Shown in pieces: positions 7,899 through 8,873 of a stretch of 10,108 nucleotides of DNA. This DNA is from Escherichia coli (lineage in GTDB: Bacteria; Pseudomonadota; Gammaproteobacteria; Enterobacterales; Enterobacteriaceae): the NCBI RefSeq assembly GCF_003334335.1, contig NZ_QOWQ01000065.1; one strand, 5' to 3'. The notes beneath the pieces are model-generated. The model worked only from the letters and a program-made list of their open reading frames with translations, made no database searches and had not been told where the DNA came from. The position numbers and the translations under genes are program-made. Every line of letters begins with the position of its first letter. Position 1 is the first letter of the stretch.

Positions 7899-8091
7899 GA
7901 ATCCTCCCGGGCGGGATAATGTTGTGAGTCAGATAAGGAGCAGGCTGAAGTCCGGAAGTTACAGGACAATGGCAGAAGGGAGACTACAGCCCGCAATTCG
8001 AAAAAGACCGCGCAGTTGCGCAGAGTGATTACTATGGGGTATTATTCGCCAGCTGAAATATTACTTCACGTTTTATTGTTTATTCCTTGCC

Positions 8092-8120
8092 GCCCGCGTC
8101 TCCCAGCGCGGGCTTTTTTT
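8092..8120 (+). terminator. Plus-strand intrinsic terminator-like hairpin
   Basis: GCCCGCG-TCTCCCAG-CGCGGGC followed by TTTTTTT on the plus strand (perfect 7-bp GC stem plus 7 T). It abuts the minus-oriented hairpin at the start of repeat copy A (8133..8150), giving a back-to-back terminator pair. Confidence 0.5.
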
Positions 8121-8127
8121 GTCCATA

Positions 8128-8366
8128 AGAAAGCCCCTCCGGAGAGGGGCTAAAGCCGCGTATCTGTATCATCATGCACATGGTGCCGGGTGCCTCCCGG
8201 TGAGTTCAGCCCGGTGCCACTAAACCCGCGTCATTCTCGTTTTGATAATCAGAGATTATACCGTCACCAGTCGCCCCTCCGCTCAGGGGGATTCACCATG
8301 CGAAATTTTTTTAACAAATGCCCAGTCTGACAGGCAACTGTCAACTTACTGAATTGTGAGCAACAT
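8128..8366 (-). repeat. Copy A of a ~210-240 bp hairpin-rich non-coding repeat
   Basis: Shares with copy B the ordered blocks AAGCCCCTCCGGAGAGGGGCT, CATGGTGCCGGGTGCCTCCCGGTGA, GCCCCTCCGC..AGGGGGATTCACCATGC, TTTAACAAA, CAAC.GTCAAC, CTGAATTGTGAG. On the minus strand the unit ends with GCCCCTCTCCGGAGGGGC + TTTCTTATGG (terminator-like). Minus strand also carries consensus TTGACA and TATAAT hexamers, but about 90 nt apart, so they do not form one promoter. Confidence 0.6.
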
Positions 8367-8624
8367 AGCATTTAACGGGGAACCTGTTTTCTGCAGTAAA
8401 AAGGCCCACCGGAGCGGATGGGCCTGGAAGGATAGCGGTCATGTGATGCCGGTTTCCCGGTAACTCAGCACCGGTATCTGAGTCAACGTTTTCTCTACTG
8501 GGTCATTTCCGATACGCCCTGCCTGCTGACAGGCTTTCATCACATCTGAAAATATAGCACCCTGACTGATACTGTAGTACCTAAGGTTCCAGAAACTGTG
8601 ATGTATCCGGCACAGAAAAGCCCC

Positions 8625-8832
8625 TCCGGAGAGGGGCTGGAGAGTGGCGCTATGTGCCATTGCATGGTGCCGGGTGCCTCCCGGTGAATTCAGTACCAGC
8701 ACCTGAATCCGCGATTATCCCATATACCTACTCGCTGATTGCCCCTCCGCACAGGGGGATTCACCATGCCAGTTTCTTTTAACAAACTCCCCGCAAACCA
8801 GACAACAGTCAACCGCCTGAATTGTGAGACAT
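8625..8832 (-). repeat. Copy B of the same repeat, immediately downstream of the tRNA cluster
   Basis: Same ordered blocks as copy A, roughly 75-85% identical by eye (not computed). Ends on the minus strand with GCCCCTCTCCGGAGGGGC + TTTTCTGTG. About 260 bp of unrelated sequence, with another hairpin (GGCCCACCGGAGCGGATGGGCC, 8406..8427), separates the two copies. Confidence 0.6.
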
Positions 8833-8834
8833 TT

Positions 8835-8858
8835 AAAAAAAAGCCCGCAAAAGCGAGC
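8835..8858 (-). terminator. Weak terminator-like hairpin plus U8 run directly after the tRNA cluster
   Basis: Minus strand reads GCTCGC-TTTT-GCGGGC followed by TTTTTTTT, beginning ~15 nt after the tRNA-Arg 3' end. The stem is short (6 bp with one G-U). Confidence 0.4.
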
Positions 8859-8873
8859 CAGGGAAAATAAGTG

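Follow-up and report, generated by a model that had tools for sequence, protein, structure and literature searches.

The 975-bp gap at positions 7899-8873 of the window (the whole 10,108-nt stretch of Escherichia coli DNA that was analysed) was most probably not empty. With a probability of about 0.78, it represents the "moron" insertion region of a lambdoid prophage that is negative for the Shiga toxin genes (stx), and it carries four small-RNA (sRNA) genes. The gap was flanked by the tRNA-Arg(TCT) gene, which begins at 8874, and by the gene of a NanS-p-type esterase, the start codon of which ends at 7898. An earlier note on this DNA had described a slot of 975 bp without a credible open reading frame (ORF), and its coordinates proved to be exact. 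The longest ORF in the gap encoded 87 aa, which is the level of mononucleotide shuffles (89 +/- 25 aa), the ORF boundaries varied among homologous cassettes, and an NCBIfam search with the 87-aa ORF (8439-8702, minus strand) returned no match. The slot can be called non-coding in the sense that it encodes no protein, but not in the sense of being empty, in view of the four sRNA genes. The hairpins and the two repeat copies that had been noticed in it were real: 10 terminator-like sites were counted against 1.5 +/- 1.4 in shuffles, with five terminators on the minus strand and one on the plus strand against 1.5 expected in total, and three repeat pairs were found (88 nt at 80% identity, 31 nt at 97%, and 22 nt at 100%). 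The statement that the slot held only these was too narrow, as they resolved into two full STnc100 genes, a third paralogue, and a convergent homologue, of about 190 bp, of an Hfq-associated RNA.

Two full-length STnc100 genes on the late strand

The two repeat copies were identified as copies A and B of STnc100, a family represented in Rfam by RF02076, with a model of 206 positions and a gathering score of 47 bits. Both copies were full-length and scored far above this value. The blocks upstream of them were compared with the corresponding regions of the Stx phage 933W, of the stx-less prophage Sp4 of E. coli Sakai, and of PasD1 and PasD2, two sRNAs of enteropathogenic E. coli (EPEC) E2348/69 (Pearl Mizrahi et al. 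2021; Zhu, Shabalina & Storz 2026 preprint).

8608..8798, minus strand: STnc100 sRNA gene, copy A (Rfam RF02076, 136.3 bits, model 1-206)
8770..8827, minus strand: conserved block upstream of copy A (repeat; alignment with 933W, Sp4 and PasD upstream regions)
8121..8330, minus strand: STnc100 sRNA gene, copy B (Rfam RF02076, 165.4 bits, model 1-206)
8302..8359, minus strand: conserved block upstream of copy B (repeat; alignment with 933W, Sp4 and PasD upstream regions)

Copy A scored 197 bits with a covariance model built from eight canonical copies and, together with the tRNAs, was 98.5% identical to the Sakai Sp4 copy. Its RNA was predicted to run from about 8769 to about 8608 with the terminator at 8638-8619, the 5' end being placed provisionally by reference to the mapped 5' end of PasD. 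The RNA of copy B was predicted to run from about 8301 to about 8121 with the terminator at 8151-8132. In both position and sequence, copy B was homologous to EcOnc27/sRNA103, the RNA located downstream of stx2B. STnc100 is a computational name, and the same RNA was found by experiment as EcOnc27 in Sakai and as sRNA103 in EDL933; it is bound by Hfq, was detected by Northern blotting, and is destabilised without hfq (PMC4104026 supplement; PMC7873438).

The block upstream of copy A consisted of TCACAATTCAG at 8827-8817, TTGTCT at 8805-8800, and the extended -10-like motif TGTTAAAAG at 8784-8776, and that of copy B consisted of TCACAATTCAG at 8359-8349, TTGCCT at 8337-8332, and TGTTAAAAA at 8316-8308. 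The 933W counterpart of the copy B block lies immediately after the 3' region of stxB2. The motifs suggest that the blocks function as promoters.

A third, diverged paralogue between the two copies

Another element of related structure, referred to here as the middle element, was located between copies A and B.

8392..8569, minus strand: diverged STnc100/PasD-like paralogue (sub-threshold Rfam STnc100 match, covariance model, folds)

Under permissive thresholds, the full Rfam STnc100 model matched the middle element at 8396-8569 with 30.1 bits (E 4e-5). The covariance model trained on the eight canonical STnc100 copies alone scored it at 38.5 bits in the window (E ~1e-8) and at 38-44 bits across four loci, and also retrieved, at 44-46 bits, PasD1 and PasD2 of EPEC, which have been validated by experiment. 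This retrieval agrees with the common ancestor that has been proposed for PasD and STnc100 (bioRxiv 10.64898/2026.05.13.724894). In a model-fitted alignment of 15 sequences, 98% of the cells were paired and changes on both sides were seen in 18 of the 34 pairs, whereas none of 500 shuffles was paired as highly and slid controls reached 40-53%. Folded independently by minimum free energy (MFE), copy A (z-score -2.4) and the middle element (z-score -2.6) revealed a common architecture and agreed with the alignment, so that the fold kept through compensatory changes, which characterises an STnc100/PasD superfamily, was found here as well. The fold shared by the three paralogues comprised a long-range closing helix around three hairpins, a single-stranded linker that varied, and the hairpin of the terminator.

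Relative to STnc100, nearly all helices of the middle element were rebuilt by compensatory changes, and its linker was different. It contained the extended -10-like motif TGCTATATT at 8559-8551, a predicted RNA from about 8546 to about 8396, and a terminator at 8425-8402. Terminators were found in all three paralogues, and at the motif level TGTTAAAAG, TGCTATATT, and TGTTAAAAA occupied the position equivalent to the PasD promoter (PasD has its mapped 5' end at GCAUGGUG). The single-stranded linker before the terminator differed among the three (AAUGGCACAUAGCGCCACUCUCC, UGACCGCUAUCCUUCC, and UGCAUGAUGAUACAGAUACGCGGCUUU), and therefore the paralogues probably have different targets. When the two variants of the middle element were compared, the -10 block was 95% and the RNA body 92% identical, against 62% for the spacer upstream, and the hairpins and terminator were reshaped yet intact. 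This pattern, with drift in the spacer, fits a maintained gene.

The middle element was present in 673 of 5,426 complete E. coli genomes, where it is unannotated; one of these is the genome of the type strain (DSM 30083 = ATCC 11775), with 100% identity. Of 50,697 phage records, 5 contained it, and no Stx phage was among these. Unlike the rest of the locus, neither the third, diverged paralogue nor the array of three in tandem seems to have been described in the literature.

Two known RNAs were rejected as identities of the middle element. PasD did not fit, as BLAST found only its 5' motif of about 40 nt, in copies A and B and not in the middle element, which is a separate lineage of the PasD/STnc100 fold. 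The other was sRNA-17 of neonatal meningitis E. coli, a 193-nt RNA without an Rfam homologue from a prophage intergenic region of more than 1 kb (PMC7719688); its primers and probe were absent from the window and from every comparison locus.

An STnc100-middle-STnc100 triple was also seen in phage vB_EcoS-640R1, in the dog isolate 51008369SK1 (comparison loci L010/L011, 3280-3939), and in phage PhiR5_2. In vB_EcoS-640R1 and the dog isolate, it was preceded by a different antiterminator and a single tRNA-Ile, and in place of a full esterase gene it had an iraM-like anti-adaptor gene and a truncated piece of DUF1737 after it; the order of the paralogues was shuffled, and the third copy was 92% identical to copy A of the window. 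Separately, the STnc100-derived covariance model gave a full-model match of 34.5 bits in prophage PP6 of EPEC E2348/69 (comparison locus L008, 6844-7010, minus strand), between dicB and DicF, which may be a false positive or a hint that the immunity/dic region holds another, distantly related member of the fold.

A convergent RNA on the opposite strand

The fourth gene was located on the plus strand between the esterase start codon and copy B.

~7927..8120, plus strand: convergent sRNA of the EcOnc08/21/42 type (homology; EPEC mapping by ligation and sequencing of interacting RNAs, RIL-seq; strand of the Northern probe of Tree et al. 2014; promoter and terminator scan)

Its signals were a promoter-like ATGCCA-17-GATAAT at 7892-7920 and a terminator at 8092-8113 followed by a U-tract to 8120, and its RNA would be antisense to the 5' leader of the esterase gene. 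Copy B ends at 8121 and this RNA at 8120, so that the two are convergent and back to back. The element was about 93% identical to those of Sakai Sp4 and EPEC PP6, for both of which RNA has been mapped. In PP6, the RIL-seq sRNA candidate E2348C_1409.E2348C_1408.IGR is 182 nt long, lies opposite the late genes, and has EcOnc08/21/42 as its homologues in enterohaemorrhagic E. coli (EHEC) (PMC8550237 Table S6); it mapped to the plus-strand element of the window. In Sakai Sp4, the EcOnc08 and EcOnc21 peaks from Hfq crosslinking and analysis of cDNA (Hfq-CRAC) and a Northern probe have been reported (PMC4104026 supplement), and these mapped to the same strand. The 5' end is uncertain, as the homologue measures 182 nt in EPEC and about 271 nt on the EHEC Northern blot. 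Convergent Hfq-binding sRNA pairs have been described at the moron site downstream of PR' in eight Sakai prophages (Tree et al. 2014, PMC4104026), and such a pair was found here, with copy B on the minus strand and the EcOnc08/21/42 homologue on the plus strand directly upstream of the esterase gene.

The anti-sRNAs AsxR and AgvB, which are RNAs of 51-60 nt with a conserved 3' region of about 42 nt (Rfam RF02703 and RF02702), were rejected as identities of the plus-strand RNA: no Rfam match to them with E <= 5 was found in the slot, whereas AsxR was recovered in 933W at 88 bits, and only 17 nt of the terminator aligned. A weak OmrA-B match, at 25 bits where the gathering score is 40, was attributed to chance or to the terminator.

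Two further features were seen in this region. An extra terminator-like hairpin of the late strand at 8008-8023 (minus), CTGCGCAACTGCGCGG followed by TCTTTTTCG, falls within the stretch that the convergent RNA covers, about 110 nt upstream of the start of the esterase gene, and is kept in 933W, Sp4, and EPEC. A GTG-start ORF of 34 aa at 7924-8028 (plus), also within the convergent RNA, has counterparts of 34-35 aa with 82-91% identity in Sakai Sp4, phage phi296, and 933W; it may encode a small protein or merely reflect a conserved leader/promoter region.

The position of stx and the module boundaries

The earlier note had likened the gene order to that of the late region of Stx phages, and comparison with 933W bore this out. 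The order in 933W is ileZ-argN-argO, terminator, stxA2-stxB2, a 487-bp gap, L0105/nanS-p, S, R, and Rz. The late-region order of methylase, ileZ-argN-argO, nanS-p, S, R, and Rz was present in the window, but stxA/stxB between Q/tRNAs and nanS-p, the mark of a Stx-converting phage, was not. The proposed search of the interval for stx1 and stx2 used Stx1 of Sakai Sp15 and Stx2 of 933W as queries in tblastn and blastn; only chance matches (E > 0.1) and no remnant were obtained, and the 933W positive control was detected as expected.

8835..8859, minus strand: intrinsic terminator after argO (stem 8859-8842 plus U-tract; terminator scan, 933W annotation, base-level alignment)
8828..8834, minus strand: 7-nt junction AAATGTC from the terminator U-tract to the TCACAATTCAG block (base-level alignment)

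The argO terminator corresponded to the element annotated in 933W as "terminator upstream of the stx genes". Window positions 8836-9274, with the tRNAs and terminator, matched 933W until just ahead of the stx2 promoter region. The 1.3-kb stx2 cassette of 933W sits exactly at the equivalent of junction 8828-8834, with the argO terminator's U-tract on one side and, on the other, the TCACAATTCAG block with which the STnc100 promoter region begins; the junction was identical in the stx-less Sakai Sp4. On the other side, window 7791-8359 was homologous to the stxB-nanS-p segment in 933W, in the Stx2a phage KH16-043, and in the Stx1 prophage Sp15. With 933W the identity was 78% (comparison locus L005, 5749-6297), where STnc100 is located at 5778-5983 and AsxR directly next to it on the other strand.

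The whole 975 bp had been regarded as the stx slot, which does not agree with this homology. About half of the slot (7899-8359) is ordinary Stx-phage sequence downstream of stxB, because 7791-8359 matches the segment after stxB2. Judged from 933W, the position equivalent to the toxin genes would be either 8360-8835 or, at base resolution, the junction 8828-8834. Since the window has two TCACAATTCAG blocks (at 8827 and 8359), the site can be described in two ways: copy A and the middle element may stand in place of stx, or the site may be unoccupied, with the middle element and copy B inserted additionally. Because of the paralogy, neither description can be preferred.

The slot had also been proposed as a potential landing site for cargo, which is supported by stx in 933W and Sp15 and by ISEc13 in EPEC PP6. 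In PP6 (L008, 18049-19797), the ISEc13 transposase splits STnc100 into 18049-18170 and 19621-19797, and one Arg tRNA is missing; the site thus tolerates insertions. The combination of nanS-p with the absence of stx, which had been pointed out as relevant to typing, is not unusual: Sp4 and phi296 also lack stx, and nanS-p in non-Stx prophages is documented (PMC10462455). Sp4 and phi296 represent the minimal stx-less version, with one STnc100 and the convergent RNA in the same tRNA-sRNA-esterase layout. The exact 975 bp occurred at 100% identity in many genomes outside the E. coli that produce Shiga toxin (STEC), 2,870 of the 5,426 complete E. coli genomes matched the slot in part, and 353 matched at least 80% of it. 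Strains VR50, ML35, and BR1220, for example, have the complete slot. A layout so common among genomes does not mark a former Stx phage.

Favoured explanation and its alternatives

In the explanation favoured here, the moron region lies downstream of the Q-dependent late promoter and ileZ-argN-argO and upstream of the nanS-p esterase and lysis genes. The late-operon strand would carry copy A, the middle paralogue, and copy B in tandem, each with a conserved promoter-like block and an intrinsic terminator, and the fourth gene, of the EcOnc08/21/42 type, would converge on them, starting beside the esterase start codon and ending at copy B. In the lysogen, each sRNA gene would be transcribed from its own promoter and ended at its own terminator, and each sRNA would bind Hfq and base-pair with host or prophage mRNAs. 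The stacked terminators would keep transcription from the tRNA promoter and basal transcription from the late promoter out of the esterase and lysis genes, and after induction the Q-modified RNA polymerase would read through all of them.

The homology, structure, covariation, terminators, module boundaries, and absence of stx and ORFs were observed directly, and several points weigh against the explanation. Expression, Hfq dependence, and targets in this strain are inferred from the homologues, and the literature has established direct targets for no STnc100 homologue. The promoters are motif-level predictions, in which the -10 hexamer matches at 4 of 6 positions and an extended TG is present. 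The single-sequence MFE fold of copy B (z -1.7) differed from the family fold, and the fold stability of the plus-strand RNA was unremarkable (z -1.2). The middle element scored below the Rfam gathering score (30 against 47 bits) and just two sequence variants of it were compared, and the model-fitted alignment biases the counts of covarying pairs upward.

A broader reading, which is possible but doubtful, is that the locus is a modular array of sRNA cassettes. The cassettes would share a scaffold (promoter block, closing helix, three hairpins, and terminator) with a separate linker for each copy, and recombination at the boundaries formed by the TCACAATTCAG block and the terminator could multiply them and exchange them between prophages. 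The boundaries flanking stx in 933W are the same TCACAATTCAG block and terminator boundaries as those of the sRNA cassettes, and in this reading sRNA cassettes and the toxin operon would be interchangeable cargo of one hotspot. The middle element would then represent a third lineage, widespread (about 12% of complete E. coli genomes) and as yet undescribed, and the convergent RNA might also act in cis on the esterase/lysis leader.

Among the competing explanations, the best placed, though unlikely, is that the interval mainly acts in cis as a transcription barrier that silences the esterase and lysis genes until Q antitermination, the RNAs being by-products without targets in trans. Five intrinsic terminators stand in series on the late strand from the tRNAs to the esterase, a direct target is firmly established for neither STnc100 nor EcOnc27, and the overlap of the convergent RNA with the esterase leader makes an action in cis possible. 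However, a barrier needs neither about 150 nt of conserved, covarying structure upstream of the terminator nor a promoter block for each unit, and the PasD homologues have dozens of RIL-seq partners. A barrier function is compatible with the sRNA explanation, and the two do not exclude each other.

Less probable still is an inert, empty spacer of hairpins and duplicated scrap where stx would be, serving chiefly as a landing pad for cargo. It would account for the absence of both ORFs and stx, for RefSeq annotating here a pseudo-fragment alone, and for the insertions accepted at the site (stx in 933W and Sp15, ISEc13 in EPEC PP6). On the other hand, the four elements account for the whole interval through family homology, conserved structure, promoter-like blocks, and terminators, half of the interval also occurs in Stx phages downstream of stxB, and the homologues are expressed Hfq-binding RNAs.

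That the prophage is a decayed former Stx phage, with stx deleted and the interval as its scar, appears very improbable. Its backbone is indeed near that of Stx2a phages (methyltransferase and tRNAs 94%, holin 93-94%), and the methyltransferase-tRNA segment (8836-10108) was 94% identical to KH16-043, but DNA and protein searches with a working control found no stx1/stx2 remnant, the junction of the argO terminator with the STnc100 promoter block was the same as in the stx-less Sakai Sp4, and intact alternative modules, not fragments, occupied the position. The clean module boundaries favour cassette exchange over decay by deletion; a variant in which stx was lost and then precisely replaced by a cassette is possible. 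The weakest candidate, one or more small proteins such as the 87-aa ORF (8439-8702, minus) or the 34-aa ORF (7924-8028, plus), can draw on the kept length and identity of the latter in Sp4, phi296, and 933W and on short hypothetical proteins annotated here in some phage records, but the 87-aa ORF is chance-sized, cut to 55 aa in homologues, and without a family match, and preservation of the 34-aa ORF is uninformative because the surrounding block is about 93% conserved in DNA between the window and 933W anyway.

With four sRNA genes as the preferred content, a toxin-less Stx-phage slot of this kind should be taken neither for empty DNA nor for the scar of a deletion. The position that holds stx in EHEC would be a regulatory-RNA position in commensal and extraintestinal strains, which adds one more data point to a known picture, and core-genome and virulence mRNAs are among the interaction partners of homologous RNAs. 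The locus also exposes an annotation gap, in that RefSeq lacks these RNA genes and the middle paralogue escapes the Rfam threshold despite its presence in 673 complete genomes.

Flanking genes

The genes on both sides of the gap were all on the minus strand, in the order methyltransferase, tRNA-Ile2(cat), tRNA-Arg(tcg), tRNA-Arg(tct), gap, esterase, class II holin, YdfR, lysozyme, and Rz.

9173..10102, minus strand, 5' end outside the window: DNA adenine methyltransferase gene (NCBIfam methyltransferase matches; RefSeq "DNA-methyltransferase")
9048..9123, minus strand: tRNA with CAT anticodon, ileZ-type (tRNA-Ile2) (ARAGORN; Rfam tRNA; RefSeq tRNA-Ile; alignment to 933W ileZ)
8964..9040, minus strand: tRNA-Arg(TCG), argN-type (ARAGORN; Rfam; 933W comparison)
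8874..8950, minus strand: tRNA-Arg(TCT), argO-type (ARAGORN; Rfam; 933W comparison)
6045..7898, minus strand: NanS-p-type sialate O-acetylesterase, 617 aa (Pfam DUF1737-SASA-DUF6645; RefSeq "SASA family carbohydrate esterase")
3992..5895, minus strand: lysis cassette (RefSeq annotation of the 99.9%-identical BR1220 locus; ORFs)
5680-5895, minus strand: class II holin (RefSeq annotation of the BR1220 locus; 933W comparison)
5325-5675, minus strand: YdfR-family ORF (RefSeq annotation of the BR1220 locus)
4728-5261, minus strand: lysozyme (RefSeq annotation of the BR1220 locus; endolysin NCBIfam match)
3992-4429, minus strand: lysis protein (Rz) (RefSeq annotation of the BR1220 locus)

NCBIfam gave no match for the esterase, holin, YdfR, or Rz ORFs, the identities of which were based on Pfam, RefSeq annotation, and comparison with 933W. 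The esterase was 54% identical in protein sequence, over the full length, to L0105 of 933W, the nanS-p prototype. Over its whole length, the window shared 99.9% identity with a prophage of the goose-faeces isolate E. coli BR1220 and with prophages in other non-STEC strains. In BR1220, where the methyltransferase gene has 1050 bp, the RefSeq order is antitermination protein, hypothetical protein, DNA methyltransferase, tRNA-Ile, two tRNA-Arg, only a pseudo-fragment, and the SASA-family esterase, followed by class II holin, YdfR, lysozyme, and lysis protein, with the terminase farther along. The YdfR-family ORF sits between holin and lysozyme, whereas 933W has no ORF there and its holin and endolysin are adjacent. 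Between the lysis genes and the terminase, a convergent pair was annotated by RefSeq as "beta family protein" (1946-3013, plus) and "sce7726 family protein" (2955-3575, minus). PADLOC matched the former to PD-Lambda-2_C (E 4e-32) and "beta" and the latter to "cll" (E 4e-31), and the pair looks like cargo for defence against phages, carried by the prophage at a second moron site.

Comparison with known systems

Like the window, 933W (Stx2a) and Sakai Sp15 (Stx1) have the late gene order, the tRNAs and terminator (90% identity), STnc100 with a convergent RNA upstream of nanS-p, and the holin (93-96%). The window differs from them in lacking stxAB and the stx promoter region, in the 54% identity of its esterase, and in two extra sRNA modules. 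Compared with Rfam RF02076, copies A and B carry the family helices and match all 206 positions, but the middle element departs from the family in its score (30 bits against the gathering score of 47), its mostly rebuilt helices, and its other linker.

PasD is an abundant RNA, and Northern blotting has shown that the Pas sRNAs depend on Hfq for their stability (PMC8550237). PasD shares with the window copies the 5' motif GCAUGGUGAAUCC, the overall fold, and a gene position directly upstream of a prophage sialate esterase. The BLAST similarity is confined to the first ~40 nt, and the 3' half of PasD with its reported seed (target motif CUCACA) is missing from the window copies. The equivalent layout in EPEC prophage PP2 has one PasD and no tRNAs.

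The closest counterparts are the pairs of Tree et al., which occur with stx (Sp5, Sp15) and without it (e.g. Sp4) (PMC4104026). Examples are EcOnc27 and AsxR downstream of stx2B in Sp5/933W, and STnc100 and EcOnc08/21/42 in the stx-less Sp4 (PMC4104026). The window differs from these pairs in having the late-strand member three times in tandem (one copy strongly diverged) instead of once and in having no moron coding sequence, and its convergent partner is unlike the short AsxR/AgvB type of anti-sRNA, with which the terminator alone aligns. Like the window, the pairs are located downstream of Q/PR' and the tRNAs and directly upstream of a conserved esterase ORF, and they are convergent with back-to-back terminators. 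Their members are homologous to those found here, copy B to EcOnc27 and the plus-strand RNA to EcOnc08/21/42. The locus thus has an ordinary, already described architecture, because such pairs were reported in 2014, nanS-p in non-Stx prophages is documented, and the 975 bp is widespread.

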